This document shows, piece after piece, positions 26,229 through 56,919 of a DNA stretch of 64,000 nucleotides. How positions within the stretch are numbered: position 1 is the first letter of the stretch; every line of letters starts with the position of its first letter. The DNA is taken from positions 2,315,929 to 2,379,928 of the forward strand of contig OU015570.1 in assembly GCA_907165135.1 (NCBI GenBank), written 5' to 3'. The translations under genes and the position numbers were made by a program. Origin of the DNA: Oikopleura dioica (lineage: Eukaryota; Animalia; Chordata). A model generated the notes under the pieces. The model was not told where the DNA came from and did not search any database. It saw only the letters and a program-made list of their open reading frames with translations.

Positions 26229-26330
26229 AGTAGTAATATCGCGAGTAGCGAAATATTAAGTGGCCTAAGTGCCCGAGACCAGCTGGTCACCTGGGCCGAC
26301 AAGTTCACGGTACCAGATGGTCAAGGGCTA
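26229..26330 (+). repeat. Left terminal inverted repeat of the Polinton (degenerate extension to about 26374)
   Basis: Reverse complement of 56818-56919 except CTGGGCCGAC vs CTGGCCCGAC. The terminal AGTAGT is typical of Polintons. Confidence 0.97.
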
Positions 26331-29300
26331 CGCACGTGCCATTTCCGTTCTCTAATTGCTCCGTTGAACACGTGTAGCCACTTCTAACAAATTTTCAAAC
26401 AATGACCGTATTCCGTGAAATTTCAACAAGCAAAAGATCAGTTTAAATATCAGATGAGTTCAAAGAAAAGGCGAAATCGCTCTTGCCTGGCGCAGGAAAA
26501 GTACGAACAACTTGCTGACGAGTTCGTCGAAGGATTTATGAAAGCTTTCTGATTCGTGGAAGAACTTTCACTGCCACTTTCTTCAGTCCTTCATCTGCCA
26601 CTCATTTTTCACAAAAATATATTTATCGAATATTTATGCTAAAACACGTGTCGTTTTCTTCCTTGATTTCGCAGAGCATGCAGAACTACGCTAGATCAAA
26701 GTTGTTATCAATATCTCCCAGAGGCTAAAGCCGAAATAAAGTTGGTAGAAATCTCTAAAAGATGATCTATAATGACGATTGCTTGCAGATGCTGAGTGGA
26801 ATTTTCAGTAGTTCGATCTCTATCGCGGATTGAACCATCTGTGGTTCAATCTGTTGGAACAATCTGATGGCTCGTTCCGCGCTATTTATTATCGATCGAT
26901 CAACCGAAAATTTCACTCAGAATAAAAATCAGAGCAAAACACAGAAGATTTTCTTCTTTTTCTCTTTTTCTACGATGTTGACCTATGGTGAGTTCAAAAT
27001 TTTGTAAATAGATAGGGGTTATTAGAAGGGGTAGGATAGGATTAATGTAGGAAGCGAATGCCCTCAACAAGGAAGTCCCTCGAGACATTGGACAGGAGAA
27101 AAGCTTACTTACGTAAAAATATAAGGGGTTAAAATTTTGTAGCGGTTAGCTGTCACGAATGCAATCGAAGTGATCATTTTAGATAGAAAGATTGGAAAGT
27201 GCTGTTGACAAAATAGATTAGTTTTTGAAAATTGTAATTATTGACTCACATTAATTTTTGTTTAGAGCATCTCAAAAATAAGAGGATGAACCGATACTTG
27301 AAGAAGCAAAAGATGAAAAACTTGCCTGTGGATATCGCCCTCGATGAGGATTTTCGTCGCGTTTGGGAAATCGCGGAAACGTTTCAACTCCGAAACTCTG
27401 ACCTATTTGAGGAGAAAATCAATGATACTGAGTAAGTTTTCTGCCAGTAAAAATGAGTTACAAAATCTTTAAGGCTTAGAAAATTCATCGGAAAGTCACA
27501 ACGAAATCTCGGTAGATCAGTCATCCTCATGGTAGAATTCTTCGGTCGAGTTCCAAATGCAAAAAACGCCAGAAATTTTCAACAACTGATTGAAACGTAA
27601 GTCATGAATACATCGAGCAGAGCAGGATGGCAGATCTACCGAGATTTCGTTGTGGCTTTCCGATAAATTTTACTAGCAGAAAACTCACTCAGCATCATTG
27701 ATTTCCTCCTCAAATAGGTCAGAGTTTTGGAGTTGAAACGTCTTTTTTTTCTTTCTTTTTCTTCTTTATTTTGTAAAATAAAAATAAAATCGGTTTCTTC
27801 GGAAGATTCGCATTAATGATCTGCAGAATACAATTAATCACCAGCAAAACTTGAGCATAAAAATGGCCAACGAAGCGAGCATCTCCTCCATGATAAAAAT
27901 AAGATTGAACTCTGTGAATATTATGCCGTCCGTTTATCGCCACAGTATTTTGGTTCGAGACCGAAATCTATTATTTTCGAGTAAGGTGAACACGGTGAAC
28001 GCGAATTTGCGCGAAATTGGCTTCGCCCCGCGAGTCGAAAGAGGACTGAAAAAGAAAAAAGTGACTTCATTATCTCACTCTCTCTAACATGGGTCAATTT
28101 GATTTTATTTTTCTTGGCAGAATTTCGCTGAGAAGATGAGGCTCAAAATTTTCGTCATTTTTTGCCGAGTTGTAGGTTCCCAACTTTTTTTCAAACTTGC
28201 AGTCTTCAAATTTAATATTTGCATAGACTTGAACTGTTCTTCTGAGTTCACTTTGAGTTGCTAAGTCTTTTGAAATTAGACAAATACGCATCGGCGGATG
28301 GTCATCTCATGGCAAGTTTTATTCTGTGTTCTTCGTGGTTTTGGCAGTGAAATTGAATTTTGTAAAATATATTTGTAAAGGCTATCTTTTGATGAGTTTT
28401 GAAAAGGCTTTCTCGAAGGAGTAGTTAACGTTTTTTCGCTTTTTTCGCGCTGCAGAATTTGTAGATCTTGTCGATTTTATCCTTCATGGCTTTGAGTAAT
28501 TTCACTTGATCGTTGATATTCATCAGCTAAAAATGGAATTGAAACTAAGGCGTTAAGAGTGAAAAAGGAAGGGAATGTCAGAAGACCAATAAGAGAGCGG
28601 TATCGCTTCCCCGAGCAAATAAGAAGCCAGAACCGTGTAAGAATCTCCCGCCGCTTTTTTTTCCGACCTTTCGTCCTCTCTTGCTTTGAAAGCTTAGAAA
28701 ACCAGAATTGAAAAATTACCTTCTCAAAAAAAGTCTGATTAGCGGGGGCGGTCCCTGCTCATACATCTTCTTCTGCCGTTTAAAAGCCTTTTTTCGTAGA
28801 GACGCCATATTCCCGTATCTTTTCTGAGCTCAAAATCTTCCAAAATCTGAACGAAAAATCTTGTCTTCTTCCTTCAAATAACGCTGATAATGAGTTTGAT
28901 GATTGAATATTTCAACGTCACCATCAACTTTTTATAATTGCTTTGGAAACAGCTCCTATCTTGTTCGACCAATTTATTACTGCGGTCAATTTATTCTTGA
29001 GAGCATAATAAACAGAATCGATACAAAGGGCTGTTACTCTATTTCAGCCAGAAATCGCAGAGCACACTTTCCTACGACATTCCGTTTTTGAAATTTGCGT
29101 ACAAATCACTCTACAAGGATACTAATCGTGCTTGAATATTTTCCTTCAGCCTGATTAAACCGACTTCCAAAAATGAAACCGTCAAATCGTGCATCGACCT
29201 ATCTCTTTATTTCGAATTGAAAATTTCCGGCCGAATAGATCGCTCTATCAATTCTATCGTTCTTTTGTTGATTTTCTTGATTTGAATCATGGGATAAACG

Positions 29301-29629
29301 TTTGCAAGATCTGAAAACTTTTATGAAGCTAATACGGCTCTATTATTATTGATTATCTAGGCAATGAGCAATGGTCTGATCAAATTGGAAAGAGTCGTCG
29401 CCAAATGCGCTAGAAGCACAGTACATCAAGCTAGCTTTGAGTTTACAGTCGGATGATTGCAGAGAGCAAGCACGTTTTATAAAAAGCTTAGTCGCAGCAA
29501 AAATAGAGTTTTTTTTGCTGGAATATAATGCGATAACAGGCATCATGTGACTGGACGACAGGGAGAAGCTCACTTTAAGAATTCGGTTAATCTTTAATTA
29601 CAACTGTAATATTAGCGTTCGCCAAATCC

Positions 29630-30070
29630 TTCCTCCGATTCCAGAAAACCCTGCTCAAGAAGAAAACGCTCCCGTAGTCGAAAATGATCCCGTAGTAGAA
29701 AACGCTCCCGTAGTCGAAAGAGATCTCGAAGCAGAAACCGTTCCCGAAGGCGAAAACGCTCCCGTAGTCGAAAGAGATCTCGTAGCAGAAAGCGTTCCCG
29801 AAGCCGCCAGCGTTCCCGAAGGCGAAAACACTCCCGTTGTCGAAAGAGATCTCGTAGCAGAAAGCGTTCCCGAAGCCGCCAGCGTTCGCGAAGGCGAAAA
29901 TGAAGACGAAGATGCTCTCGACTTTACGTCTGCTCCCGATATTTTCAATTCAACCTTGCTAACCGCTGGAAACACGCCAATCTTTCTCCCGGACATGACT
30001 TTTCTTGATTCTCGCATCCATCCTTCTCCCTCCGGATGGAGCGTTACTGTCGACTGGGATCCCGAAAGGG
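29630..30070 (+). CDS. Exon of an acidic low-complexity protein with ENAPVVERDL/AESVPEAAS repeats
   Basis: The plus-strand frame is open across degenerate 24-63 nt tandem repeats and ends DWDPER|gtaaaa. The rest of the gene is not resolved. Confidence 0.45.
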
Positions 30071-36752: not shown

Positions 36753-37094
36753 TTATTTGCTTTTGCGGTACTTTTTGCTTAATAATGAGTTTTGAAACCT
36801 GCTGAAATAAACTCTTGACGAAATTTGAGGTTTATATTTTATTTTTTTGAAGATCGTGCAAATATAAATAAGCGATAAAGACAGCGGTAAAAGGACAATG
36901 TGTGCGTAATTGAAAATAAACAATATCGATAAAGGCAGTGTAAAATAGGCGAGTTGCTGAAAATAATCTTGTATGTACAAATAAAAGGCAAAAAATAGAA
37001 CGACGAAATAAAGAGTCGATGGAAGCGGTGGAAACTTAGATGAGGTCGAAATTGATGCGGTTATGGTAATCGTAGTATCTGAAGGCTCGCTCAT
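36753..37094 (-). CDS. Small two-TM membrane protein overlapping the upstream gene
   Basis: Two hydrophobic stretches LYFVVLFFAFYLYI and LPLSILFIFNYAHIVLLPLSLSLIYI, and a basic tail. Confidence 0.45.
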   Translation of the reverse strand: MSEPSDTTITITASISTSSKFPPLPSTLYFVVLFFAFYLYIQDYFQQLAYFTLPLSILFIFNYAHIVLLPLSLSLIYICTIFKKIKYKPQISSRVYFSRFQNSLLSKKYRKSK

Positions 37095-38030
37095 CCTTGT
37101 CCATAAAAATTTGGCAACTGAAATCGTCAGTGTTCGGAGTGGCCCAAAGGACGATGCCGTTGATCACAACAACCCTTACGCCATTGACGCGGGTCAGAGC
37201 CGCCGAGACCTCACGGCCGTTGATTGTAGCTGGCAGCTGAACTGAAATTCCCTAAAAATAAAGGTTATCAATTGAAAAATTGCAGATTTGAAATTACCTC
37301 TGGCGGAAAGCGCATGGTCTCCACACGCACTGCCCCATTGTCAAAGGCACTACCGACGAGTTGAGCTTCGCCTGGCTCAAGCCTGACTCTGTGTGAGTAG
37401 TACACTCTTGACTCGGGGTCTTCGGCCTCGTAGCGCGCCTGATCGTGGAGTTCTGCAGCCCCGTTGACGACATGGAAGGGACCAGTAAGTGGCTCAATCA
37501 TCGGCGCGTTGTTTTCTTCGGCGGGGTCTTCCATTGGAAAGGCGGCTTCTTGCTCCGGCTCCATTCGGGCGGCGGCTTCTTCTTCGTTTTCGGCTGGAGC
37601 GGGGTGGTCTTCTGCGGCGTTGTTTTCGGCGGGAGCAGCTCGGTCGTCTGCGGCGGCGGCATCGTTAGCTTGATCCTGGTCTTCCCTGAAAACATGATTA
37701 TTTAAAGAAACTCAAAGGATGAACTTACATGACGAGCTCAGCAAGATGCTGGAGCTGCAAGTCTTCACGATTAAGAAGCGCCCTCCATTCAGGTGAAAGC
37801 ATCTCGCCTTCAAACCATTCGAATTCCTCGCCTTGTCCGTCCCTAGAAAATTCTCGTCTATATTCTTTTAAAATAAACAAACCTTATCGCAAGCTCATCT
37901 CTTAGCCGTCTCTCTTGTAGCCTAGTCCATCGCTGTCGAATTTGAGTCTCAAAAAGTTGAGGATTCTGCAGGATTGCGTCGATGATATCTCGGTCAACGC
38001 TGCTGATATTCTCGAGGTCGATGAGTGTAT
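37036..38030 (-). CDS. Acidic Ala/Glu/Pro-rich cargo protein, three introns (37843-37882, 37686-37728, 37252-37297), 5' end possibly frameshifted
   Basis: Splicing gives ...DELAIR DGQGEEFEWF...LVM EDQDQANDAAAA...MRFPPE GISVQLPATING...RINFDLI*. Confidence 0.65.
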
Positions 38031-38247
38031 TCATATTTCAAAAAAGATTTATTTCCGTTTTCTGAAAATCATGACCAGAGGGGTGATTTATATCGCGTCG
38101 CAAAGGGCGCCATCATTCGAGCGCGGCGCGGCATTTCAAACGCCGCGCGCAAACATGGATAGTGATAATCTCACCAACTTGCTCAACCAAGATGGATCGT
38201 GATAATCTTACTCACTAGGCCCGAAATCGATATCAAATTTATAGCAA

Positions 38248-38619: not shown

Positions 38620-38769
38620 AGAGTCAAAATTGAGTTTAAAAGTTTTATTAAATCTTTGGCAAGAAAAGTTGAGCAATAGAAAATCGAGCAGAAATTCAAA
38701 ACGTAGTTGTATTTACAGGCTGATTGTGTCGTAGAACGTGTCCTAGAAAAATGTAAGTCGGTTAAAACT

Positions 38770-39572
38770 TTAAACTTACTAACTTCGTTTGGGATCATTG
38801 GGAGGGGAATGTCAACGTCGATTTGGTCAAACGCTGCCTAAAATCATTCAGATGCAAATGGTGGCGAAACTTACTTATTTGTTTCCCTGATCGGAGGGTC
38901 AGGCCTTGATAGTGGTAGGGGTTTTTTGGCGTCTCCTCGACGGCTTCAGCACTTTCCTCTCCGCTTCCACTGTCGTCTCCAGACGAACCGCTTGAGTCGG
39001 GTTGAAAGTCCTCGTCGTTGACGTCGTCATCGTCCGGCTAATCACGTTTAGAAAAGCTTATTAGGAATAGCTTACGTCGTTGACTTTGTAAGCCCGGCCA
39101 CCACAGAGAGCGGCTAATTGGAGAAGGCGACGGAAGGCAGCAGTGCCTGATAATAATAAATTTTCTGGAAAAGATAATCTTACTTGAGCAAAAACGGTAA
39201 AGGATGTAGCAGATAAACCCTCCTTGGGATATCAAGATTGTAATTATTGCAAAATGGGCTTCGCTGAGGGTGATTTTGACCGACGATGATCCATTTTCAA
39301 TTAAAACTGAATATTTGACAAGATGAAGCAGTGATAATCTTACTTTCCGCTTTTGCCGGGCTTGTTGTTGTTGGCTTGGTTGTTGGTGGCTGAGTTGTTG
39401 GCGGCTTCGTTGTTGCAAGGTCGACAGGAACTACAAGATAGAAAAAAACAAAATTCGCGCAAGTACCTTTATCATCTTGGATAACACGAAATCTATCGTC
39501 ATAGATGGGCTGTGAGACGCTCAGAATTCGGCTAGTGATGGAAAAAAAGAGAGTTAATCGCAAAATATTCAT
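38770..39572 (-). CDS. Multi-exon membrane protein: signal-like N-terminus, Thr/Pro mucin-like repeat, TM segment and acidic tail
   Basis: MNILRLTLFFSITSRILSVS; TTKPPTTQPPTTKPTTTSP; AHFAIITILISQGGFICYIL; exon ...RAYKVND|gtaag..tag|PDDDDVNDEDFQPDSSGSSG. The full exon structure and 3' end are not resolved. Confidence 0.5.
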
Positions 39573-40356: not shown

Positions 40357-40672
40357 ATGGGCGACATATTTTTGAGCTACCTTGAATATGATCTTTTTGA
40401 GTTTGAAACTCTTGCAAAAAGGATCCAAAGGGCCAGCGCCTCTCATTTTGGTCGCATAAAAATTCTACTACGTACACATTACCAGGAGATGACACCGAGA
40501 GAAAGGCGTCGAGTTGCCCGCATGATCCGTAAGTTATTTCATGCTGGAAAATTATTAAAGCGGCATAGGGAGAAAAGTTGAGGAGATTGAACGAACACTG
40601 ACGCTAAGCCTTGACAAGCTCGACAATTTGTCTACTGATTTTGAAGACGCTCTTGAATCTGATCTCATCTAA
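40357..40672 (+). CDS. Hypothetical 91-aa protein, intron 40529-40568 (40 nt)
   Basis: GTAAGT...TAG removal extends the ORF: ...RMIR RKVEEIERTLTLSLDKLDNLSTDFEDALESDLI*. Confidence 0.55.
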
Positions 40673-40698
40673 TCATCTGAACCTTTTTTTTCTTTGAT

Positions 40699-41635: not shown

Positions 41636-44600
41636 TAGGGTTCGCGCCCAAAAATCAAGTGCCCGAAATACTTATTGTATCTGTCTAAATTTCAGATATA
41701 TTATAGATAAGGGCATTCAAAGAATATATTCTTTCAAAATTTTTCTAAATATAAGAGGGTTGAAGAGAAAATGAGCCCCAAAATTGGCGAAAAATGGGTT
41801 GAGCATGTTAGTCAGCCCAAAATTAAAAATTTCAAAAACGGGGATGATCAGTAGAATCTTCTGATCTTTATTTGATAAAAAAATTTTGGGAAACATCTAC
41901 GGTTTCGCTAGAAATTAGAAAAAACCGCCTTTTTTGGCAATATTTTTCTGTTACGTGATCATGCGCGCGCACGCGTAACAGCGCGTGATACGGGGTGGCA
42001 ACGCAAAATTCCAATCAATTTTGCCAGAATATTTTCATCCTTCGGTTTTAACAAAATAAATGAAAAAAGAATTATTTCGTTGAAATAATCAAATCGTAAA
42101 TAAACTCATGAGTAATATAAATTTATAATTTTAATAATAAAAAACTTCAAAAAGTCGTTTTAAAAACCATAATGATGAATAAAAACGGGTCAATAGATAT
42201 AAATTAAGGAGAGGGAGTGGGTGGGGATGGGGACAGGACTGAGATTGAAACACAGCTGCCTCTCTCAAGCCCATTTAAAATTAAAAGCCAGGGACGGGGC
42301 TGAGACGGCCCGAAGGGCCGTCAAGCCCATTTAAAATTAAAAGCCAGGGACGGGGCTGAGACGGCCCGAAGGGCCGTCAAGCCCATTTAAAATTAAAAGC
42401 CAGGGACGGGGCTGAGACGGCCCGAAGGGCCGTCAAGCCCATTTAAAATTAAAAGCCAGGGACGGGGCTGAGACGGCCCGAAGGGCCGTCAAGCCCATTT
42501 AAAATTAAAAGCCAGGGACGGGGCTGAGACGGCCCGAAGGGCCGTCAAGCCCATTTAAAATTAAAAGCCAGGGACGGGGCTGAGACGGCCCGAAGGGCCG
42601 TCAAGCCCATTTAAAATTAAAAGCCAGGGACGGGGCTGAGACGGCCCGAAGGGCCGTCAAGCCCATTTAAAATTAAAAGCCAGGGACGGGGCTGAGACGG
42701 CCCGAAGGGCCGTCAAGCCCATTTAAAATTAAAAGCCAGGGACGGGGCTGAGACGGCCCGAAGGGCCGTCAAGCCCATTTAAAATTAAAAGCCAGGGACG
42801 GGGCTGAGACGGCCCGAAGGGCCGTCAAGCCCATTTAAAATTAAAAGCCAGGGACGGGGCTGAGACGGCCCGAAGGGCCGTCAAGCCCATTTAAAATTAA
42901 AAGCCAGGGACGGGGCTGAGACGGCCCGAAGGGCCGTCAAGCCCATTTAAAATTAAAAGCCAGGGACGGGGCTGAGACGGCCCGAAGGGCCGTCAAGCCC
43001 ATTTAAAATTAAAAGCCAGGGACGGGGCTGAGACGGCCCGAAGGGCCGTCAAGCCCATTTAAAATTAAAAGCCAGGGACGGGGCTGAGACGGCCCGAAGG
43101 GCCGTCAAGCCCATTTAAAATTAAAAGCCAGGGACGGGGCTGAGACGGCCCGAAGGGCCGTCAAGCCCATTTAAAATTAAAAGCCAGGGACGGGGCTGAG
43201 ACGGCCCGAAGGGCCGTCAAGCCCATTTAAAATTAAAAGCCAGGGACGGGGCTGAGACGGCCCGAAGGGCCGTCAAGCCCATTTAAAATTAAAAGCCAGG
43301 GACGGGGCTGAGACGGCCCGAAGGGCCGTCAAGCCCATTTAAAATTAAAAGCCAGGGACGGGGCTGAGACGGCCCGAAGGGCCGTCAAGCCCATTTAAAA
43401 TTAAAAGCCAGGGACGGGGCTGAGACGGCCCGAAGGGCCGTCAAGCCCATTTAAAATTAAAAGCCAGGGACGGGGCTGAGACGGCCCGAAGGGCCGTCAA
43501 GCCCATTTAAAATTAAAAGCCAGGGACGGGGCTGAGACGGCCCGAAGGGCCGTCAAGCCCATTTAAAATTAAAAGCCAGGGACGGGGCTGAGACGGCCCG
43601 AAGGGCCGTCAAGCCCATTTAAAATTAAAAGCCAGGGACGGGGCTGAGACGGCCCGAAGGGCCGTCAAGCCCATTTAAAATTAAAAGCCAGGGACGGGGC
43701 TGAGACGGCCCGAAGGGCCGTCAAGCCCATTTAAAATTAAAAGCCAGGGACGGGGCTGAGACGGCCCGAAGGGCCGTCAAGCCCATTTAAAATTAAAAGC
43801 CAGGGACGGGGCTGAGACGGCCCGAAGGGCCGTCAAGCCCATTTAAAATTAAAAGCCAGGGACGGGGCTGAGACGGCCCGAAGGGCCGTCAAGCCCATTT
43901 AAAATTAAAAGCCAGGGACGGGGCTGAGACGGCCCGAAGGGCCGTCAAGCCCATTTAAAATTAAAAGCCAGGGACGGGGCTGAGACGGCCCGAAGGGCCG
44001 TCAAGCCCATTTAAAATTAAAAGCCAGGGACGGGGCTGAGACGGCCCGAAGGGCCGTCAAGCCCATTTAAAATTAAAAGCCAGGGACGGGGCTGAGACGG
44101 CCCGAAGGGCCGTCAAGCCCATTTAAAATTAAAAGCCAGGGACGGGGCTGAGACGGCCCGAAGGGCCGTCAAGCCCATTTAAAATTAAAAGCCAGGGACG
44201 GGGCTGAGACGGCCCGAAGGGCCGTCAAGCCCATTTAAAATTAAAAGCCAGGGACGGGGCTGAGACGGCCCGAAGGGCCGTCAAGCCCATTTAAAATTAA
44301 AAGCCAGGGACGGGGCTGAGACGGCCCGAAGGGCCGTCAAGCCCATTTAAAATTAAAAGCCAGGGACGGGGCTGAGACGGCCCGAAGGGCCGTCAAGCCC
44401 ATTTAAAATTAAAAGCCAGGGACGGGGCTGAGACGGCCCGAAGGGCCGTCAAGCCCATTTAAAATTAAAAGCCAGGGACGGGGCTGAGACGGCCCGAAGG
44501 GCCGTCAAGCCCATTTAAAATTAAAAGCCAGGGACGGGGCTGAGACGGCCCGAAGGGCCGTCAAGCCCATTTAAAATTAAAAGCCAGGGACGGGGCTGAG

Positions 44601-45338
44601 ACGGCCCGAAGGGCCGTCAAGCCCATTTAAAATTAAAAGCCAGGGACGGGGCTGAGACGGCCCGAAGGGCCGTCAAGCCCATTTAAAATTAAAAGCCAGG
44701 GACGGGGCTGAGACGGCCCGAAGGGCCGTCAAGCCCATTTAAAATTAAAAGCCAGGGACGGGGCTGAGTATTTTTCTATTTTTGTTTATAAGAAAATATT
44801 TAAAAAACCTTTAATAGAAAATAGAAAATGTTTTATTTGAAAAAAATATTTAATAATTTTTAGTTTTATATTTTTTAGATTTATATTTTTAATATTAATT
44901 GACTTTTTAAAAATCTTTCTTTGAAAAGAGAGAATTTCTTTGAAATGAAAGAAAATCGGATTTCGCGGCGTTCACCCTAGCCGCGTCAGAGAAATGCCTG
45001 AGGGCGAACGCCGCGCTGTGCGACGCGCGCCGCGCAAAGATGGTCAAAAATAGACCTTCAATTGTCAATTACAGGATGTTAGTCATCTGTTTCCCATAAT
45101 TTTTGAATGGAATATTGTTCTTCTTTATTGAAATTTTATATAGATCTAAAAAAATTCTGGGAAACTTTTGACTAACATGGTTTTTTAACATTAATTTCCC
45201 TATATCTCTTCAACCCTTTAATTTTTTTTTCTCGAAAATATGTTTTTTAGATCATCAAACAGGTTTATTCTACCTGTAGAAATTTGAAAACAATTCCATT
45301 TGTCTATCAGAAGATAGTTTTTTTGGGCGCGAACCCTA
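41636..45338. mobile_element. Non-autonomous hAT-type element (3.7 kb) inserted in the Polinton and carrying the 56-bp array
   Basis: TIR TAGGGTTCGCGCCCAAAAA at both ends with degenerate subterminal similarity. 8-bp TSD GCTATATT at 41628-41635 and 45339-45346. Confidence 0.9.
42265..44768. repeat. Tandem array of about 44.7 copies of a 56-bp unit containing a GAA-triloop hairpin
   Basis: Unit AAGCCCATTTAAAATTAAAAGCCAGGGACGGGGCTGAGACGGCCCGAAGGGCCGTC. The register shifts 4 nt per 60-nt line. No variant copies were seen by eye. Confidence 0.98.
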
Positions 45339-45807
45339 GCTATATTCTAAATCGTGAAAGAGATGCAGGGTACAATCCTTTTCTTTTAATGGCGTATATA
45401 ATCGGATTTGGTTTCGACCCGGAACCTTACTTTGGGAGAAGAAAAGATCGGCGAAAACTTCTTTATCTCACAGAATTCCACGATCAGCATGTTCATCTTA
45501 CCATCAAAGAAATCGAACATTATTTCGTTGTCAATTTTTGCTCTATCGATTACGATATTTATAACCGGAAATATCAGCCAGACAACTTCTTCCTTATCAG
45601 TGAAAGAACCGTATTTTTCCAAATTGAAAATGGCAACATTTGGTTCCATTGGATCGACGGATTCACACTGCTCCAGGCACTCGAGAAAAAACGTTGCATA
45701 AATTGCCCAAGTGATTTGCGTAAGTTATAAAAAATGGACTAGGAATAAGCATTTTTTTAAGTTTCAAAATACGCTCAATCGAGGAGTTCTTTAAAGTACC
45801 AGACTTT

Positions 45808-48800
45808 ATGACACTCCGTTATCGAGATCTCAAACGACTCAGTGTTGCGTTACAAAAAGACATCGAACTTTACGTCCTTCATGACTCACCCAACATAAGG
45901 CTCTTCCATGCCAAAAAGAAAAAATTCAAAAACGCGCCTCTTCGTCTCTTGGTTGATGACGGTGAGAAAAACATGGACACTGTCATATGGCCGATTCTGA
46001 TAATCCACAATGAAAGAGCAATACCAAACGATCGTGTGTGCCCAAATCCAGGGTGTTACTATAGAACCCATCTTACATTCAATTTTGAGAGACACTTCAA
46101 AATCTGTAGTCAGGCAAAAACACCGATAACCTCAAAGCAAACTGCGTACGGGCAACGAACCGACATCATTTGGAAGCTTGTTGAAGAAGCATATCTTCCT
46201 AAAGAAGCACTGAATTTTCGCAAAACAAAATTTGGTAAAGATTGTTTTTGTTAAAAATAATAATTTTTAAGTCTGCTATGATATTGAAACCTTTGAAAAA
46301 GCAATGCGGGAATCAACAGATTGTACAGTTGTCCACGCATCTCACCAGCTGCTGAGTATTGGTATTGGATCAAATTTTGGATACGAGTCTGTGATTGTAA
46401 GGGAAGATGACACTCCGGGAGCAGCGAAAAAAATGGTCAATCTCTTTGTGCAAAAATTGAAGATGGCGGTGGAATCTGCAGATTGTTTTCCAGAATATTT
46501 CTATCGCGCGATTGTAACACTAGAAACTGAAAAGCTTCTAAAAGACGACAAGATTGAAAAATCCCGATTGTCTGCTCTTCTTCGAAAACTCAAACAATAC
46601 ATGAAGATTGACGTTTTTGGCTTCAATTCAGCGAAATTTGATTTACCTGTATTGGTGCCCTACCTGTTTCCCGCTCTTCAGGCAGAGTTTGGGAAGTTTA
46701 ACGTCATCAAAAAGGGCGCAAGATATTTTCTCATCGAAACATCGTGCTGTAATTTCAAAGATGTGCTCAACTTTACGACTCCGATCAAACTGGCAAAGTA
46801 TCTGAAGCAAAATGGTGTCGAAGAAGAAAAAGGAATTTGGCCATACAATCTGTACAACTCGATCGAAGAACTGAAAGCTGCAGACATGTTTCCAACTCAC
46901 GATAAATTCTATTCCGATTTGAAGAAAGCCAACATCCCCCTTGAGCTTTATGAGGAGAATTTGAAGATGTTCACCGACTTTAAACGAGAAAATTCATCCT
47001 ATAACATGCGCGATTGGCTCAAAAGATACAATACCCTGGATGTTACTCCTCTTGCAAAAGCAATCGACAATTCTTTCAAAAACTTTCAAAAAGTTTTTGG
47101 AATGGATCCGGCCGTCTCCTTGAGCTTACCCGGTTTTGCTCAAAATTGCCTTTTCTCCCTCTACTCTGAAGATGCTGCACTATCACGTAAGTAAAATGAT
47201 CCTTTTCTGTGGTTTAATATCATTTAGACTCATTTCATCAGAAGAATGACGAAATAAGAACACTTTTTCGAAACAATATTGTTGGTGGACTGGTCAATGT
47301 TTTTTCTCGGTAAATCGCTTTTAGTTATCCAAACTTATCGTTTTTTAGCTATACTGAACTTGGTGATGAAGAAGCTCCTCACAATGCGAAATTCGCCCAG
47401 AATGGAGAGCGTTTCTCCAATATATCGTTTCTGGATTTTAACGCTCTCTATCTCTGGGCGGAAAATCAAAAGCTACCGACCACCCAGGGTATTCTTTGGG
47501 AGAAGAAATCAAACAATTTTGTCAAAAATATAATGACAAATGGAAACTCATTCGTTGCTCTTCAATGGCTTCTCTTTGCCGAAGAAAATGGTAAGAAATG
47601 GTATCATGAACATAACCTTATATCTTTTAAGACCCAAATCTGACTGACAAAAATGGTAACAGGATTCGCCTTCAGCATCAGTATTTCCGAGGGGAGCATT
47701 CAGAAGAGGGTCGCAAGGTCGACGGTTTTGCGATTGTCGATGGTGTCAAAGTATTTTGGGAGTTTCTTGGATGCAAATTTCACAAGGACTGCCCTCGGTG
47801 TCGCCCAAACGAGACAGATGAAGCTTGGGAAAGAAAAAAGGCATTCTTGGAGTCACGTGGTAAAGTCATCTTCATCCACGAATGTAAATGGAGAACAATT
47901 GCGCGCAGCGTCAAATGGAAATCAAAATACCTACCACTTATCGAAAAAAAAACAGGAACTGAAGAGCAAATTCTGGCAGGAATCAAGGATGGCTCGCTTT
48001 ACGGCTTCATTGTCGCTGACGTTCGATGTCCCCTTCCAATCTTCGAAAAATTCAAAAATCTAAATTTTCCTCCGGTTATACAGCGACTTCAAATGACACC
48101 AGAAATGCTCTCCCCATACATGAAATCTCGAGTCGAGAGAGAGAAAACAACACTAAGAGAAACCGTCGTGCAAACGTTCAATGGTGATGGACTGTTGATG
48201 TTGACAGAGACCGCAAAGTTTTACATGGACATTGGTCTCGAAGTAGGCAACATAACAAAATTTATTCAATACCGTGGAGAAAAGATGCTATCTAAATTCG
48301 TCAGTAGAATTACAGAAGGTAGAATTAAGGCAATTCTGGATAAAGAAAATGAGCTCGGACTTGTTTACAAGACAGTTGGTAATAGTTCCTACGGCAAGCT
48401 TGGACAAAAGGTTAAATCTATTTGTTCGACAGTAAATAACTCTATTAAGGTTGGGCAGCCAACAAACGTTTATGGTGACACGAGATTTTTGACAGAACAG
48501 TCAAGAAAAAAAACTTTCAAGTATTTTACCCCGCTTGAGATGGAAGACGGTGACTGTGACTATTACGAAATCACTCGAAATTCAACCAAGGTCACGGACA
48601 ATAAGCCTTTACCAATGTGCGTTGCAATCCTTCAGCACAGCAAACTTCTATTCTTACGATTCATCTATGATGTTGTGTTCGAGTTTTTTGAGCCCGGATC
48701 CTACAAACTCTGCTACTGCGACACTGACAGCATCGCAATAGGTAAGCACTCACTTCATATAAAAACTTATTTATTTTAAGCGACAACTCGCTCAGCAAAG

Positions 48801-49289
48801 TCTGGCCGGACAACGAGACTCGGAAAAAGCGAAGATACATTCTTCCCCATCGTAAAAGAGGGTCGATTAGAAGAGTTCAAAAAGGTTTGGACAAAGTGGT
48901 TCGTTCTTGACGATACCACTCGCACTGAAAAAACACCTGGGTTACTAAAGGTCGAGTGGGAGACTTCAGTGGGGTCGCTTGTGGCGCTGACATGCAAGAC
49001 ATATCAGTGTGAGGGGAAGGACAACAAGCCTGAAGAAGTGATCAAGCGATCGACAAAGGGGACACCACATTCTCATTCTATCGAGCAAACAACATTTAAA
49101 CGCGCTTTGAAAGATGAGCTTGCTGAAAGAGACAATCAAGTTGATATAAGTCGCCTTGGCCTTAGAAATCATAAAATGCAGCGTCTAACTGTCACAAAAA
49201 AAATGCTCAGTTCAATTTTCTATAAAATGCAGCTTGAATCTGACGGTATCACTTCGCGACCTTTGCAAATAAACGGTGTTTATCTTTAA
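45808..49289 (+). CDS. polB: Protein-primed family B DNA polymerase, about 1081 aa after splicing, with a VSR-like nuclease insertion. Introns at 46235-46271, 47187-47227, 47310-47348, 47591-47631, 48742-48780 and probably 48411-48449
   Basis: Splicing the GT-AG introns gives one ORF (3246 nt, all phases consistent). Motifs: ExoI VCYDIETF, ExoII GFNSAKFDL, ExoIII YNTLDV, NNIVGGLVNVFSR, motif A LDFNALYLWA, motif B KTVGNSSYGK, motif C YCDTDS, KTPGLLKVEW. N-terminal C2HC finger CPNPGC..RHFKIC. Insert SFVALQWL...GE..KVDG..WEFLGCKFHKDCPRC..IHECKW. Confidence 0.95.
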
Positions 49290-49311
49290 TCATCATTTTC
49301 CTTTTTTTAGA

Positions 49312-49848
49312 ATGCTTTTTGATTTTATGGAGCGCGATGAGCTTCTTTCGATCCTTGATAAGTTTGGCGGCAAGCTTGATTATCTGGACGCAACTGAGGA
49401 ACAATTCTTAAGGGAGAAAAATCTTTTAAGATTTCAAAGAAATCACATTATATTTCCGAAAAACCGTTCTCGAAAGACACGAGCAGAAAATATCACAATT
49501 ATTACAACTCTTGGTGGAGAATTTGACCTTCAAGTATTCATTCGCGAAATCTTGGATAGCCTTTCCTCGCCATTTCATATAATGATTGATTTTGGAGTGC
49601 TCCTGTTCCACCCGACTAGCCACGAATTCCGCTATATGTGGGCTGAGCGATATACAGCGCTTCCTTTACCACCAAGAATATCATCTGATGAAGAACGAGA
49701 TAATTTTTTTAATTCTTTTATTTCAATGGACATAAGCTCAACAGTTTTAGAGGCGCATGCCAGTCAATCTCATTTTGACAAGAGTGGCTTCTGTTTTCGG
49801 AAATTTCTGACATGCACTGTTTTCCTCTCCAAAATTCCAGATTTCTAA
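49312..49848 (+). CDS. Stand-alone 178-aa protein resembling the terminal-protein (N-terminal) domain of polinton/adintovirus pPolB
   Basis: ATG at 49312, intact ORF. PFHIMIDFGVLLFHPTSHEFRYMWA...ISSDEERDNFFNSFISMDIS...DKSGFCFRKFLTCTVFLSK resembles my recollection of the FKINxSFGFIL..tgE.RYFYA...SxW..itn.tf.v N-terminal block of pPolB (by eye only). Confidence 0.6.
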   Translation: MLFDFMERDELLSILDKFGGKLDYLDATEEQFLREKNLLRFQRNHIIFPKNRSRKTRAENITIITTLGGEFDLQVFIREILDSLSSPFHIMIDFGVLLFHPTSHEFRYMWAERYTALPLPPRISSDEERDNFFNSFISMDISSTVLEAHASQSHFDKSGFCFRKFLTCTVFLSKIPDF

Positions 49849-51105
49849 AGCAGCTCCTTTGTCACGTTCCCGAATTCATCCAATGTCAACTTCGTCATCA
49901 CACTCGTAAAAACAACTTAATTTTTGTTAATCATTTTTTATCTGCATGACACTTACCTAAACTAAGATTTTCTGTAACATCAGTTTCAAAATCAATAACA
50001 AAACTTATCCAACCATTTGAATCTTCTAATTCTCCCTGAAACTCGTGTGAAAATAAAAGCGCTTTCTTGAAATCAAAAATTGTGTCAATCGCAGGTGATG
50101 AAACATCATAGATATTGCAAAGTATGTCCTGATATTTAAGATAGGGTTCCAAAGGGAATTCAGACGAAATTGACTTAAAACATTTTAGATAGGATAAAAG
50201 AACTCGATATTTACCATAGGATATCCATGACAAGACTTCCCATTGAGCAAAATATCAAATGTTTTCACATTGTTTTGTAGGAAAGAGATAGTCTCGGAAG
50301 AGTTGCTTCCGAGCAGCAATGGCGTCTTTGTTATTCCTGCAAAAAGATAAAGTGGAGTGTTCCCTCCAACAAGATTTTCTAATCGGACGCGGCGATCATG
50401 TTGAGGAATAGATCTTATTTTGGTTGTGAGATCATCGTACTTGTAGGTGATTGTGTTTCTGTTTGAGATGTGATCACGCAAATCTTTACTCGAAACATAT
50501 TCCACTTTTGCAAAGCAGTCTTTTAGCTCAAAGACACCCTCAATGTCTGGGTTCTCGTCCTTGATTTTGATTGTCGAAAACAATGCTTCCTGACGTGCAA
50601 AGGACAAAGCCATTTCCACATTAGGTGGAAGCGGCTTGTTATCCATGAGAAATCCGTCAGTAGGAATCATCATCAGCTGGTAGACATATTTACCATCCTT
50701 AAGGATAGTTCCTGATCTGCGGGTATTGACTAGATTTTGCTGATTTGTAGAAGTCAATTCACCATAATTGAAGTCATCAAAATATCCTTCTGTCCGAAAA
50801 AATGATTCCATATAGTTTTTCGTAAAATTTACTTTCTTGAAAAGCCAATCTTTCAAGTAGTAATCGATCTGAGTGTTTGGAGTTATTGGTTGACTTTGCA
50901 ACTCAATTTTAAGTGCTTTAAACTGCTTTGGCGCAAAACCGTTTTCAACAACATACTTTGCATCGACTTCGATGTTGAAAAAAATTTGAATATTATTTTT
51001 AACAAGGCAAAGGTTCGGGTCAGCTTCAAAAACGAATTCGAGCTTATCGTTGTTGTTTACTCGAGGATAATGTTTTTTGATCAGTTTTTTATCTGGAACA
51101 CTCAT
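49845..51105 (-). CDS. Major capsid protein (double jelly-roll type), 392 aa, with introns at 50174-50214 and 49916-49956 (41 nt each)
   Basis: ORFs 50185..51105 and 49931..50233 join through GT-AG introns into one frame ending ...GWISFVIDFETDVTENLSLVVFTSVMTKLTLDEFGNVTKELL*. It has Polinton MCP-like motifs (LEFVF, DGFLMDNKPLPPNVEMALSFAR, TFDILLNGKSCHGYP) and sits in the morphogenesis module. Confidence 0.85.
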
Positions 51106-51221
51106 TTTTGAAAAATAAAATCATTCACTCCTTTTTATATTCATTGAGAATGCCCTAAAGGGCTCAAAATAATTTGCCGATATCAAACAATAAAAATCAC
51201 TTCAAATACCTAAGAGCCATT

Positions 51222-51665: not shown

Positions 51666-51723
51666 TTTGTGATTTGTAACAAAAAGGCTTGCTTATATGC
51701 GGGTAAAATAGCTCGGGGTGATT

Positions 51724-52286
51724 TTATTTCAAAAATAATAGAAAAATAAAGACAGTTATTGCAAGTCCCAAATCGATGTATCTCTTTGGCTTGAGAAAGG
51801 TTTTTTGAACATCGAGAAATTGCTTCATCCCTTTTTCTTTTACCAACATGAGATACTTGTTCATGAGCCGATCAACAAGGATAATTTTCATCTTTAATTG
51901 AAGTTTTTTCATTGATGATTCATCAATTACTTGAGAAGCTGTATTCATGACGAGAACAGTTGCGCATAGAACAGCTTGCAAATTTTTGAAAGACGCTTCT
52001 TCACACGCAAGTTTCTCAAGTATATCTAGACAAACATAAGTTCATCTTGCCCTATTTACCTACCTTCATACGTAAAAGAAAACCAAACTGCGGATTCAAT
52101 TGTAGTAACACGTCTTCGATATGCATCAAGAAGTCTCTTCCTATTGACATCCATGACGGATAAGTTCTGGTTGGAAAGTTGGTGAGTTTGCTCAATTGTT
52201 TGATAGGCCTCTTGGCTAGTTTGGACTAAATTTTCCGAGAGAAGAAGATTCGCAACATCAACGAAAAAATTTGCTTCGCTGCACAT
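51724..52286 (-). CDS. 174-aa helical tail-anchored protein, possibly Bcl-2-like, with an intron at 52026-52063 (38 nt)
   Basis: ORFs 52056..52373 and 51724..51981 join in frame (FTYE|DILEKL). C-terminal TM KPKRYIDLGLAITVFIFLLFLK. The Bcl-2 assignment is speculative. Confidence 0.5.
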
Positions 52287-52446
52287 TTTGACGATTTTTC
52301 GCAGGACGCTTGGCTTAAATGCAAAACAAAAAAAGCCCGAGGCAAAAGAGGACAGTTTCAATAAAAGACACATTACTCAGTATTTTTTTATTTATTGTCG
52401 CGAACACACCAATTTTTAGAAAGGAAATGGGTAAAGAGCACAGAAA

Positions 52447-52581
52447 TCATTTATGTCGCTTCTTTTTGGATTTTTTGTGTTTTTTCTTGACAGTGTTCTT
52501 CGATATCGGTTGCTTATTCTTTGAATCTTTTTTTCCCCAGAATTTTTCTCGATTTCGAAGCGATCGCGAGATTGCGGCCAT
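52447..52581 (-). CDS. Small Lys/Arg-rich peptide (44 aa), candidate DNA-condensing core protein
   Basis: MAAISRSLRNREKFWGKKDSKNKQPISKNTVKKKHKKSKKKRHK, overlapping the penton-like ORF. Confidence 0.35.
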   Translation of the reverse strand: MAAISRSLRNREKFWGKKDSKNKQPISKNTVKKKHKKSKKKRHK

Positions 52582-52951
52582 TTGTGTCGATTTTAAGGTT
52601 GATATAGGCAAAATCTGGCGGAATTGAAATTTCGCCACGGAGTTCGATGGCGAGTTTTGCTTTTGATAGGTCATCAACGTGAAGCTCATATTTATTTACA
52701 ATTTGAGCCTGATAATTGTAACAAGTAACCCCCGAGGGGATTAAAAAATTCGAAAGAACATGTTTTTTAATCGAGTCTTCAATATAGAAAGCCACGTAAA
52801 TTCCAGACGGGTTCGTACTCAAATAGAGGCCACTTTCAAAAAGGGATACTGTCATTGTTAGAAGATCACCAGGGCGAAATTTTGGAAGGGCGAATTCAAA
52901 ATTTTTTGCTGTTGTAAGATTCAAAATCGTCGGCGATTTTACGAAGCTCAT
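52514..52951 (-). CDS. Putative minor capsid (penton, single jelly-roll) protein, about 145 aa
   Basis: Predicted beta-rich, lies between the integrase and capsid genes. GIYVAFYIED...NKYELHVDDLSKAKLAIEL...AYINLKI loosely fits the penton C-terminal pattern. It is short for a penton. Confidence 0.4.
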   Translation of the reverse strand: MSFVKSPTILNLTTAKNFEFALPKFRPGDLLTMTVSLFESGLYLSTNPSGIYVAFYIEDSIKKHVLSNFLIPSGVTCYNYQAQIVNKYELHVDDLSKAKLAIELRGEISIPPDFAYINLKIDTNGRNLAIASKSRKILGKKRFKE

Positions 52952-53954
52952 ATAAGTAATGTGAGCCGGAGACTTCTTTGCCACCTAAGCTGACGAGTTT
53001 ATACCAAACAACTCCCGCCTTTTGCTTATGGGACTTGATTTTGTAGACGTCCGTCGACCAGTTCTGCTTGTATCCCTTGTCAAAAAGACTCTTTTTTCTC
53101 AAAATTCGAACAATGTTTCCTTTCTTGAGTTTTGGCTCGACTACAAGATCAATGTCAGGATAGAGCTTTTTAAAGATTTTTTCGGTATCTTCGTAGGTTA
53201 CACGCTCAGGGGCCATTCCAATTGAACGATGAGGCGTTGAATTATATCCAGCTGCGACGTCATCAATAATATCAAGCCATTTTATTGTTTTATTTGTCGT
53301 CATGTATTTTTCAATTTTTGTTTTTAAAGTCCGATTCACACGTTCAACCATTGAAGCTTTGATTTTCGTAAGAATACTGTAATGGTGGATATTAAATTGG
53401 TCGAGTATTTTACGCGTCGGAGCATTATAAAATTCTTTTCCTTCATCCGTTATTAAGGTGTTTGGCAGTTCATCAAGGCCTGACAGTATCTCCTCGACAG
53501 CTTTACTCACTTGAGCTCCACTTTTTTTCTTTAATGGCCTAACCCAGATAAATTTTGAGAAACAGTCAATCATGACTAGAATGTATACAAAATTCCTGTT
53601 TGCATATTTCATCTTTGGACTTCTTGTATACTCGATTAAATCAGCCATAAATATCTGACGCGGATGATTGACGATTATTCGCCGTCTCGGAAATTTCTTT
53701 TTGACGATTCTTCCATGTTTACTATTTGCTTCATCAGCTTGCAAAAAATCCTTAATTTTGCTCGAATACGCCGGTTTGCTTTTAACTCTCCGGTAAATTG
53801 ACTCAATGTCATTGTCAATATCTGCTTGCGTGCCGACATTTATACCGGCAGGTTTTGCATATTTACGGAGGTTAACCATTTGATGAAATAAAAATTGATC
53901 TGCGACTTTTATGTTTCCATGATAAATAAACACCCGGGGTGATTTTGGATTCAT
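52896..53954 (-). CDS. Retroviral-like (RVE/c-integrase) integrase, 352 aa, intronless
   Basis: DDE motifs FMADLIEY, LVMIDCFSKFIW, LITDEGKEF, ASMVERVNRTLK and YNSTPHRSIGMAP, consistent with the 6-bp TSD. Confidence 0.95.
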   Translation of the reverse strand: MNPKSPRVFIYHGNIKVADQFLFHQMVNLRKYAKPAGINVGTQADIDNDIESIYRRVKSKPAYSSKIKDFLQADEANSKHGRIVKKKFPRRRIIVNHPRQIFMADLIEYTRSPKMKYANRNFVYILVMIDCFSKFIWVRPLKKKSGAQVSKAVEEILSGLDELPNTLITDEGKEFYNAPTRKILDQFNIHHYSILTKIKASMVERVNRTLKTKIEKYMTTNKTIKWLDIIDDVAAGYNSTPHRSIGMAPERVTYEDTEKIFKKLYPDIDLVVEPKLKKGNIVRILRKKSLFDKGYKQNWSTDVYKIKSHKQKAGVVWYKLVSLGGKEVSGSHYLYELRKIADDFESYNSKKF

Positions 53955-54929
53955 TTATTTTCGCCAGTTTAATTTTCTAGATTTTCGTTTTTTTGAACGT
54001 TCGTCTTCGTCAGATGACGATGACGTGTATGATGACGTCTCTTGTTCTGATGAGCTTGATTCTGATGATGAGAACTTCCGTTTCCTCGGAACTGATTTGA
54101 CATTTTCTTTTTTTGCCACTTTTTCTTCTTTTTTGAGAGATTTTTTGATTTCATTGTCGCTTTTTACTGTCGCTGTAAAGGTTGGTAATTTTGTTGTGTA
54201 TTTCTCTTGGATTTCGAAAAATCTTCGGAAATCGTTCTCGCTGATAATGTAGGACTTCATGCCGGAAACTGACCAGCACACTGGATAAGTCGCCATTATA
54301 TCCGTAAACATACGATAATTTGATCGATGCGCCTTCGGCGATAAGTTGATAAGAAAGTAGGGATACTTATCATATTTTGAATGCTCTTCTGCTTGTTTGT
54401 AAGCTTGGGCGAGCCCAAGAGAGCGACAGACTCGAAGGTTGATTGACGTGTCCAGACAATTCCGCAGAAGCACCTGCATGTTACAGCTGTTTCTTATGTC
54501 TCGAGCATAACGTCCCTGTGAATAACTATTTTGAGTCATTATCATAACACTCAAGTTTCGTTTACCACTGGTTACGCGAAATAAATGATCAATAGCCTCC
54601 GAATTAACGGCTTTATCGTAGAGATCGTCCAATACAATAAGCGAGTGACAGTCAAGATCGTCAATGTCGTCTTGATCAGGTAGACCTTGCGCAAAATGAA
54701 TGGGAATGTTGATTCTATCGGATTGATCCCACGTTATCGGTTTTTCCTTGAGAAATCTCGGATAGTAGTAAACAATTTGTGAAGGGATTCTTTCGAAGAG
54801 ATGGAAATTTTCACAAAGCAGACCGGCAATATAAGTTTTCCCAGATTGCGAGGATCCTGAGAAAATGCTTCGAAACGGATAAGGCAATCGGTAGTCCTCG
54901 GCAATGTCTCCCGAGATTGAAAAACTCAT
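53955..54929 (-). CDS. A32/FtsK-HerA-type genome-packaging ATPase, 324 aa, with a Ser/Lys-rich C-terminal tail
   Basis: Walker A FSGSSQSGKT, Walker B LIVLDDLY, and SGKRNLSVMIMTQN...RDIRNSCN. Confidence 0.92.
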   Translation of the reverse strand: MSFSISGDIAEDYRLPYPFRSIFSGSSQSGKTYIAGLLCENFHLFERIPSQIVYYYPRFLKEKPITWDQSDRINIPIHFAQGLPDQDDIDDLDCHSLIVLDDLYDKAVNSEAIDHLFRVTSGKRNLSVMIMTQNSYSQGRYARDIRNSCNMQVLLRNCLDTSINLRVCRSLGLAQAYKQAEEHSKYDKYPYFLINLSPKAHRSNYRMFTDIMATYPVCWSVSGMKSYIISENDFRRFFEIQEKYTTKLPTFTATVKSDNEIKKSLKKEEKVAKKENVKSVPRKRKFSSSESSSSEQETSSYTSSSSDEDERSKKRKSRKLNWRK

Positions 54930-55075
54930 TGCGATAACGGCTTCTTTTGCTGTTGTAATTGAAGAAGCTTCGAAAAGAAATTAAGAACAAGAATGCCAAG
55001 AATGATGTAAAGAGAAGTGTTTTGCTTTGAAATATTTTTTTTAATGCAAGAAATGATATCTTCGTCGAGTTTCAT
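54926..55075 (-). CDS. 49-aa single-TM protein whose stop overlaps the ATPase start (ATGA)
   Basis: MKLDEDIISCIKKNISKQNTSLYIILGILVLNFFSKLLQLQQQKKPLSQ*. TGA at 54928-54926 overlaps the ATG at 54929-54927. Confidence 0.55.
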   Translation of the reverse strand: MKLDEDIISCIKKNISKQNTSLYIILGILVLNFFSKLLQLQQQKKPLSQ

Positions 55076-55453: not shown

Positions 55454-55574
55454 ATCTAAAAGGTAAGAAATAAGCCTCAGTATTGTGGTTAGATCTGTGT
55501 TGAGCGTTTTCTGGTTCCATTATCGCGACGGAGCCTTATTTATACAAATAGGATTCATGTAAAATTAAATACTA

Positions 55575-56014
55575 TTAGGACGATGGAAAGATATTTCTGC
55601 GACACATTCCACATGTTTTGTTGCGATGATCGGTGACGTATCTCTCAAAGCAATTCTTGTGAAGTTCGTGACCACACTCTGGCCTGATTGCTTTTTGCCC
55701 GACTAAATTTGTTTATTTTACATATTTGAAATTATTGACGGCTTACTTTCAATATTTTCGATACATATGTAGCATTTGCTCGGTTCTCCTTCCCGTTTTC
55801 CGAATTCAACCGGGCCACTGAGCTCGAGAATCTGCATCTCATTCGTTTGATAAATTGCCTGATTTTCTCGTTGACTGGTAAGCTCGACAAAGCCTTCAAT
55901 ATTCCCAATATGTGTTCTGCTTAGACGACCTGCTATGAAACACATCGGACAGGAAATGGCATCGTTCGAGAGTTCCCAAAAAATTGAGCATTCCCAGCAG
56001 AAAAAAATAGACAT
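55575..56014 (-). CDS. Second zinc-ribbon plus RING-H2 paralog, intron 55703-55746
   Basis: FFCWEC...CPMC. Spliced CYICIENIEIGQKAIRPECGHELHKNCFERYVTDHRNKTCGMCR, with the intron at the same position as in the first paralog. Confidence 0.85.
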
Positions 56015-56158
56015 GTCTTAATAATGATAAAAAAGAGATGATTTGATGGTTTAAAGTTTTCGAAAGACAGGATAGGTAAAATGGTTCACGGAAGAGGTTT
56101 TTCGTTCTTTTACTTAATTTCATTCAAACTTATTCAAAGAAATAAAAAGGTACCGTTT

Positions 56159-56665
56159 TCACCAAAACATATTTTCACGGCACATCCCACAAGAAGAGTG
56201 GTAATTGATGTATTTGTAGAAGCACGATGCGTGAACATGATGACCACATTCAGGTCGAACGGCTTTTTCTCCAACTTATTTTTTATTTTTATGAATCAAT
56301 AATTTTTACATACACTCGATTTCTTCAATGCAAATATAGCATGTGTCGATTTCACCCTCTGTTTTCATGAATTCGATAGGTCCTTTCAGAGTGGGATTTT
56401 CCTCAAATTCGTAAATGATCTCTCTCTCAATTTCTTGTTGATTTTCAGCTGGAGCCTGATAATTGCCTTCAACAATTGCAGTTGCTTGATCAGCGTAAAC
56501 GATTTCTGTCTCATTAACTTGTTGATTTTCATTTGGGGCTTGATAATTGCCTTCAATAATTGCAATTAGTGTGTCTGGAGAGGAATGATCAGCGTTACAT
56601 TGCGGACAAATTGAGCTTTCTTGAAGCTCAATAAAAATTATACAATTCCAGCAGTAGAAAATCAT
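56159..56665 (-). CDS. Zinc-ribbon plus RING-H2 E3 ubiquitin ligase-like protein (RNF115/RNF126-like architecture), intron 56275-56313
   Basis: N-terminal FYCWNC...CPQC. Spliced C-terminus CYICIEEIEFGEKAVRPECGHHVHASCFYKYINYHSSCGMCR is a full C3H2C3 RING. Confidence 0.85.
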
Positions 56666-56817
56666 TTCTAGAGATTTGGCCGAGGCTTACTTGCTTATAT
56701 ACGCGTGCTTACAAGCCGTGAAGTTTTCTCATTTTTCGAAGATTGTTATCAGATATTTATTCTTGCTTGAACACGTGATGAACGGAAACCAATTAGTGAA
56801 CGGAAACGACACGTGCC

Positions 56818-56919
56818 TAGCCCTTGACCATCTGGTACCGTGAACTTGTCGGGCCAGGTGACCAGCTGGTCTCGGGCACTTAGGCCACTTAATATTTCGC
56901 TACTCGCGATATTACTACT
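56818..56919 (-). repeat. Right terminal inverted repeat of the Polinton (degenerate extension to about 56772)
   Basis: Mirror of 26229-26330 and followed by the TSD ATCTCT. Confidence 0.97.

Follow-up and report, generated by a model that had tools for sequence, protein, structure and literature searches.

Short GT-AG segments, probably spliced out by the host, split the polymerase and capsid genes of an Oikopleura dioica Polinton

Can the replication and virion genes of a DNA transposon be split by the short introns of its animal host? The question is raised by a 30.7-kb Polinton at positions 26229-56919 of a 64,000-nucleotide stretch of the Oikopleura dioica genome (GenBank assembly GCA_907165135.1, contig OU015570.1, positions 2,315,929 to 2,379,928 of the forward strand), which we call the window. 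A first-pass annotation had described it as a complete Polinton whose core genes carry host-style introns. We found that its genes for protein-primed DNA polymerase B (pPolB, encoded by polB) and for the major capsid protein are split by eight short GT-AG segments, which are likely removed by the major spliceosome of the host. We give this reading a probability of roughly 85%.

The element is a Polinton by its defining features: terminal inverted repeats, a 6-bp target-site duplication, pPolB, a retroviral-type (rve) integrase and a double-jelly-roll capsid. An inverted-repeat search returned arms at 26228-26358 and 56790-56920 (131 nt, 96% complementary). They correspond to a left terminal repeat at 26229..26358 on the plus strand, starting with AGTAGT, and a right one at 56790..56919 on the minus strand, with the terminal letters ACTACT; AGT...ACT ends are typical of Polinton/Maverick elements. 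The target-site duplication, ATCTCT, flanks both ends (26223..26228 and 56920..56925, no strand), which bears out the termini as first annotated. The element is best explained as a recent insertion.

Intron-type segments in the polymerase and capsid genes

The polB gene (45808..49289, plus strand) was recognized by its homologs and by the Pfam family PF03175, and consists of seven exons separated by six GT-AG segments of 37-41 nt. With the junctions written as X, the frame is open for 1082 amino acids. Its closest homologs, P0001 and P0002, come from public gene annotation of O. dioica. P0001 begins within exon 2 and contains six window exon translations verbatim, so that five of the six sites are already spliced in automatic annotation. 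The PF03175 match passes the cut-off on P0001 (E 5e-9), whereas a single window exon reaches only E 0.002.

Intron 1 (46235..46271, 37 nt, phase 1) lies two codons before C-Y-D-I-E, the exonuclease DIE motif, and intron 6 (48742..48780, 39 nt, phase 1, with an in-frame stop) follows Y-C-D-T-D-S by a few codons, so both flank these motifs as had been noticed. Between them are intron 2 (47187..47227, 41 nt, phase 1), intron 3 (47310..47348, 39 nt, phase 2, with an in-frame stop), intron 4 (47591..47631, 41 nt, phase 1) and intron 5 (48411..48449, 39 nt, phase 0), which is in frame, contains no stop and is the least certain; all are on the plus strand. Aligned homologs continue through all six junctions with at most a few gap columns. 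As a non-circular test, the polB profile was rebuilt solely from seven metagenome proteins encoded by continuous open reading frames (ORFs). It returned five segments as exact GT-AG introns and the remaining, in-frame one as an insertion.

The major capsid protein gene (49845..51105, minus strand) has three exons and was identified by homology to P0021, an uninterrupted protein 45% identical to it, which alone placed both introns. These are intron 1 at protein site 302 (50174..50214, 41 nt, phase 0) and intron 2 at site 373 (49916..49956, 41 nt, phase 1), both on the minus strand. A structural model of P0021 matched the major capsids of mavirus, an iridovirus and Sputnik (best E 7e-8, TM ~0.2, with a pLDDT of only 50.5), and on this modelled similarity the window capsid is predicted to be a double-jelly-roll major capsid protein. 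Prokaryote-style ORF calling reduces the capsid protein to ~200-320 amino acids, and the collection entry for the window capsid is a 208-amino-acid call. In line with the suggestion that ORF-based searches would miss this lineage, ORF callers truncate these genes, and such lineages would be under-counted or scored as degraded.

Next, we asked whether the eight core segments are introns. Five shift the frame, two more contain a stop and one (polB intron 5) is open. All eight begin with GT[AT]A and end with T[TA]AG, and their GC content is 24% compared with 41% in the exons. Precise restoration of the frame together with a GT-AG consensus, as found at the core sites, is the mark of U2-type introns. 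In the intronless genes, 10-13% of codon positions have a chance GT..AG pair in the fitting length class, which gives a chance of 4e-8 for eight sites if they are assumed independent. Spliced alignment of the relatives described below called introns in none of 9 integrases, 6 ATPases and 12 proteases, so the aligner does not invent them. The colinearity of homologs over all eight sites confirms that polB and the capsid gene carry intron-type segments between open exons. A splice-motif scan made without homology was not above chance at a low threshold (39 signals, 47 in shuffles). Outside polB and the capsid gene, only its strongest signal class was enriched, with 9 occurrences against 2.3 expected. 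None of 100 shuffles reached that number, compared with 6-7 of 100 when the threshold was lowered. The earlier count of at least 15 introns in the element is reasonable: 8 are checked by homologs, 2 by paralogy and the remainder by frame alone.

Conservation and turnover in related elements

One metagenome scan with capsid motifs yielded 17 marine loci with 31-56% capsid identity and the same gene order as the window. L017, which has a capsid frameshift, was left out of the tree, the intron statistics and the ratios of nonsynonymous to synonymous substitution (dN/dS), and four calls of 72-87 nt with GA or GC donors were left out of the intron length counts. In the DNA of the covering loci, an intron is present at capsid site 302 in one of 15 (L001), at site 373 in three of 14 (L001, L004 and L005) and at site 81, which is uninterrupted in the window, in 13 of 15. 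For polB, site 1054, after DTDS (intron 6 of the window), is occupied in the same phase in both covering loci, L003 and L005. L005 lacks introns at the remaining five window sites, and introns 2, 3 and 4 are also absent in L003; L005 has sites of its own at 393, 657, 947 and 1111, two of them common to L003. Three of the eight core sites (capsid 302 and 373, polB 1054) are thus shared with relatives and the remainder are lineage-specific. The comparison across relatives proposed at first pass therefore speaks against private insertions, as the three sites agree in position and phase. Database proteins called as plain ORFs begin or end at these intron sites, which is weaker evidence.

In all, 33 GT-AG introns of 37-54 nt were counted, and the length of 22 cannot be divided by three. 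Where introns of different elements occupy one site, their cores are 55% alike, compared with 53% for shuffles. Capsid exon dN/dS, the other comparison that had been called for, is 0.04-0.08 in the 4 of 11 pairs where it could be measured (6 were saturated and 1 near-identical), indicating purifying selection. Unless splicing removes them, it is difficult to see why frame-breaking segments should persist between exons that selection keeps intact. A quick unrooted tree joined the window with L001 and three proteins ending at site 302 (SH-aLRT 100), which suggests that the intron at site 302 was gained when this clade arose. The patchy distribution of sites 81 and 373 requires losses as well. 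Altogether, these are old, maintained introns with both gain and loss inside the viral lineage.

Around motif B of polB, three differing intron or ORF-end positions fall within ~10 codons (956 in the window, 947 in L003 and L005, and the end of database protein P0016 between them), and this region is a possible intron hot spot.

Some relatives are organized differently. The 4.8 kb of L007:763-5553 form an element in its own right, bounded by terminal repeats of 192 nt (100%) and flanked by the 6-bp duplication TCTTTG. It encodes an ATPase, an integrase, an ORF at the minor-capsid position, a protease and an intron-bearing capsid gene, and it has no polB; it is likely a helper-dependent mini-Polinton. 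L008-L010, L012, L016 and L017 have the same gene order without a polB match, and no ends were seen for them. In a host gene beside the mini-element, a GA-AG intron of 84 nt was called (L007:6277-6360; the other call in this gene is unreliable). This intron class is typical of O. dioica and hints at a larvacean host.

Evidence bearing on splicing

Several observations weigh against splicing of the core segments in an active viral lineage, or against parts of the history given above. No spliced junction was found in the raw sequencing runs X4, X5, X6 and X1, which gave 13, 10, 10 and 2 partial reads, nearly all less than 90% alike. In the contig runs X7-X10, which leave most of the stretch without cover, no joint was seen at any intron. 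All eight runs contain relatives only, and no RNA run was listed as containing 45200-55000. Two X7 contigs of a related family span intron sites and keep intron-length sequence, with lengths of 672 and 513 letters where the exons alone would give 628 and 474. That these runs are RNA is a guess; DNA or unspliced RNA would look alike. Contigs of X7-X9 also hold the 3' end of a relative's polB. The polB segment at 48411..48449 could be a coding insert of 13 residues rather than an intron. The polB comparison draws on the DNA of just three of the 17 loci, because the scan used capsid motifs, and the distinction between gain and loss comes from unrooted quick trees, with the intron states of database proteins taken from where their ORFs end and not from DNA. 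Finally, the protease gene was found neither in the window nor in L001, which makes virion maturation doubtful.

Searching both strands for the protease (PF00770) with the L007 protein as query, and with splicing allowed, found none in the element. The best spliced-alignment score was 42 in the element and 36 in L001, the locus closest to the window, compared with 218-798 in 12 other loci; the gene is thus present in 12 of the 17 related loci and was not found in L001. Unrelated ORFs fill its position in the element, and to call this Polinton complete was an overstatement. One reading of these results is that the introns are real and that the sub-lineage, after losing its maturation protease, is a nuclear transposon or depends on a helper for particles. 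We regard this as a serious possibility, if a little short of an even chance. Against it, the capsid gene is intact and its synonymous sites are saturated relative to L001 at 56% protein identity, and a diverged or host protease could substitute. Loss of the protease is in any case compatible with splicing of the core genes. A search of a viral contig collection matched no relative of polB or the capsid, which is not evidence that virions are absent.

The proposal that the element depends on the spliceosome is supported as far as intron-type segments and open exons go; junctions were seen in neither the raw nor the contig runs. On sequence grounds we strongly infer that the core segments are spliced.

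Proposed mechanism and alternative explanations

Judging from Polinton biology in general, the element would be transcribed by host RNA polymerase II in the nucleus. The U2 spliceosome would then remove the introns, giving pPolB and capsid protein; pPolB would start at the termini to copy the linear DNA, which the integrase would reinsert with a 6-bp duplication. Since copying would run from DNA to DNA, introns once gained would be inherited with the element, unlike in retroelements. Host introns of O. dioica peak at 47 bp, with 76% at new positions and 12% of the GA-AG class (PMC4122922; PMC5240408). The core introns of the window are slightly shorter (37-41 nt) and all GT-AG. An element resident there for long would undergo the turnover that its host does, and intron gain and loss in the lineage would most likely come about by whatever drives the very high turnover there. 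Co-evolution with one minimal-intron host, as proposed at first pass, is a conjecture.

Could the segments instead have arisen after integration, as private insertions into a copy that is now a dead fossil? In the relatives with DNA, five of the window's six polB segments were missing, and the relative contigs that keep intron-length sequence would agree with this. Against it, relatives at 46-56% capsid identity have introns of matching position and phase at three sites, the exons have no stop or frameshift, the terminal repeats are 96% alike, the duplication is intact and the splice consensus is exact at all eight sites, and we consider such an origin highly improbable. Recent copying of an introner is also improbable, if less extremely so. 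The narrow 37-41 nt length range in the window and the introners of dinoflagellate Polinton-like viruses (PMC12166617) are in its favor. However, an introner is defined by a family of repeated, near-identical introns, and the cores of different introns here are at the level of shuffles (0.53 alike in both; best pair 0.79, shuffle maximum 0.71). An introner origin of the core segments that is old and has since decayed is conceivable.

A founder rich in introns, with a patchy pattern produced by loss only, is unlikely but deserves more weight than either of these. Capsid site 81 occurs across several deep clades, and the branches that lack it are scattered, as such a history would leave them. 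The ten polB sites in three elements, one of them shared, would nevertheless need many parallel losses, and in a wider FastTree the most distant clade consists of long continuous proteins in 10 of its 12 rows, although some of these may be spliced gene models. We therefore favor introns that were gained as well as lost within the lineage and are removed by the host spliceosome. Extending this, we can imagine a widespread marine polintovirus clade long caught up in the intron turnover of its larvacean hosts, with micro-introns in polB and the capsid gene and never in the integrase, ATPase or protease. In it, splicing of 37-54-nt introns would act as a gate that restricts the virus to hosts able to splice micro-introns, intron retention would silence the replication and capsid genes of integrated copies, and satellites with termini of their own, capsid and integrase genes and no polB would be shed. 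This scenario is speculative, and we would bet against it. The clade is a compact multi-copy system in which gain and loss of spliceosomal introns can be mapped on a tree, and its host is noted for extreme intron turnover.

Other genes and setting of the element

The integrase (52896..53954, minus strand; PF00665, E 4e-12) and a P-loop ATPase at the packaging-ATPase position (53955..54929, minus strand), assigned by synteny and motifs, are each a single ORF without an intron, in agreement with the first-pass annotation. The ATPase has syntenic homologs in 6 loci, weak PHROG ATPase matches and no A32 family match in Pfam; we take its visible motifs to be Walker A and B. An ORF at the minor-capsid position (52514..52984, minus strand) is weakly similar to its syntenic counterpart in L007 (score 52), has no family match and is a candidate for the minor capsid (penton) protein.

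Upstream of polB is a gene, or a first exon, at 45389..45811 (plus strand). If its intron is 45720-45761 (42 nt), it encodes a protein of its own, with a stop that overlaps the ATG of polB; if the donor four bases on is used (45724-45761, 38 nt), it is fused to polB in a protein of 1208 amino acids, the form in which the public model P0002 has it. An ORF at 40681..41466 (plus strand) is a paralog of this gene (E 5e-6) and of the P0002 N-terminus. Downstream of polB, the ORF at 49312..49848 (plus strand) is conserved in L003-L005, with a 54-nt intron in L003. Fold searches gave no clear fold for it (best Z 6.3, best Foldseek E 0.03), and the weak matches (E 0.03-0.46) included several pPolBs, a protein of an adintovirus and the terminal protein of a phage. 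The pattern of this free-standing ORF is reminiscent of the terminal-protein region at the N-terminus of other Polinton pPolBs, and a separate terminal protein is possible.

Two RING genes lie near the right end, both on the minus strand: 56160..56665, with an intron at 56275-56313 (39 nt), and 55577..56014, with one at 55703-55746 (44 nt). The introns are at equivalent places in these paralogs and the RING pattern runs over each junction. For three further genes the candidate introns were judged by frame only, without an outside homolog. The accessory gene at 37036..38034 (minus strand) has candidates at 37843-37882, 37686-37728 and 37252-37297 and an open chain of 289 amino acids. In the small gene at 40357..40674 (plus strand), a candidate of 40 nt with a weak acceptor (40529-40568) joins 57 and 33 codons. 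The third, a gene of 203 amino acids with a hydrophobic C-terminal tail (51724..52373, minus strand; candidate intron 52026-52063, 38 nt), sits at the protease position of the relatives. It had been labelled Bcl-2-like, which our searches did not support: neither exon gave a Pfam or PDB sequence match and no NWGR-like motif was seen.

Strong splice-signal pairs beyond those listed at first pass lie within 38743..39343 on the minus strand (39307-39343, 39038-39075, 38838-38874 and 38743-38779) and at 27432-27473 and 32955-33003. Within the element, an inverted-repeat pair at 27379-27741 (arms of 74 and 48 nt) overlaps a candidate for a small spliced ORF. The polB block is directly preceded by a perfect tandem array at 42265..44768 with 44.7 copies of a 56-nt unit (2.5 kb, 100% matches), each unit having a short GC-rich hairpin. 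The flanks of the element (1-26000 and 57000-64000) contain decayed fragments of LTR-type elements and reverse transcriptases and many long inverted repeats.

Comparison with known systems

Mavericks are known among the Y-chromosome elements of O. dioica (PMC5240408). Polintons had been called intron-poor, and this agrees with the literature: intact vertebrate Mavericks are described without introns (Barreat and Katzourakis, 2021; PMC8097293), and nematode Mavericks have an intronless core and cargo genes with introns (Widen et al.; 10.1101/2022.07.12.499685). Two surveys of endogenous Polinton-like viruses assume that there are none and use prokaryote-style ORF calling (PMC10120064; PMC9356565). 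In the literature searched we found no account of Polintons with spliceosomal introns in the polymerase or capsid gene, including in PMC8502044, PMC11244446, PMC11296320, 10.1101/2024.03.25.586562, 10.1101/2023.08.22.554363 and 10.64898/2026.10.13.758929; older work or Repbase may mention them. Uniqueness had nonetheless been claimed too strongly, since a public model already splices five polB sites. P0001 is not annotated as belonging to an intron-bearing Polinton.

The element resembles animal Polintons/Mavericks and adintoviruses (PMC8502044) in its terminal inverted repeats, 6-bp target-site duplication, pPolB, rve integrase, ATPase and double-jelly-roll capsid. It differs from animal Mavericks in the introns of polB and the capsid gene, the protease that was not found, its length of 30.7 kb and the 2.5-kb array. 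The introners of dinoflagellate eupolintoviruses (Gozashti et al., 2025; PMC12166617) are likewise intron-type sequences in Polinton-like proviruses. Those are young and repeated, with ~25% in coding regions, and were mostly acquired after integration, whereas the segments described here are non-repetitive, old and shared in position. Polinton-like viruses of cryptophyte protists (PMC12220804) also carry introns, but these are self-splicing group I introns of 309-376 bp, located in a small gene that precedes the capsid gene, unlike the GT-AG segments of 37-41 nt found here. Mirusviruses (PMC12768974) have GT-AG introns enriched in virion genes, which have been taken as a sign of nuclear replication. 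They belong to another realm (with an HK97 capsid) and have protist hosts, and their introns are ~80 bp long and often contain homing endonucleases. Spliced DNA viruses as such are not new; what sets this element apart from described animal Mavericks is a set of old introns in polymerase and capsid genes, with selection maintained on the surrounding exons and turnover across a marine clade.

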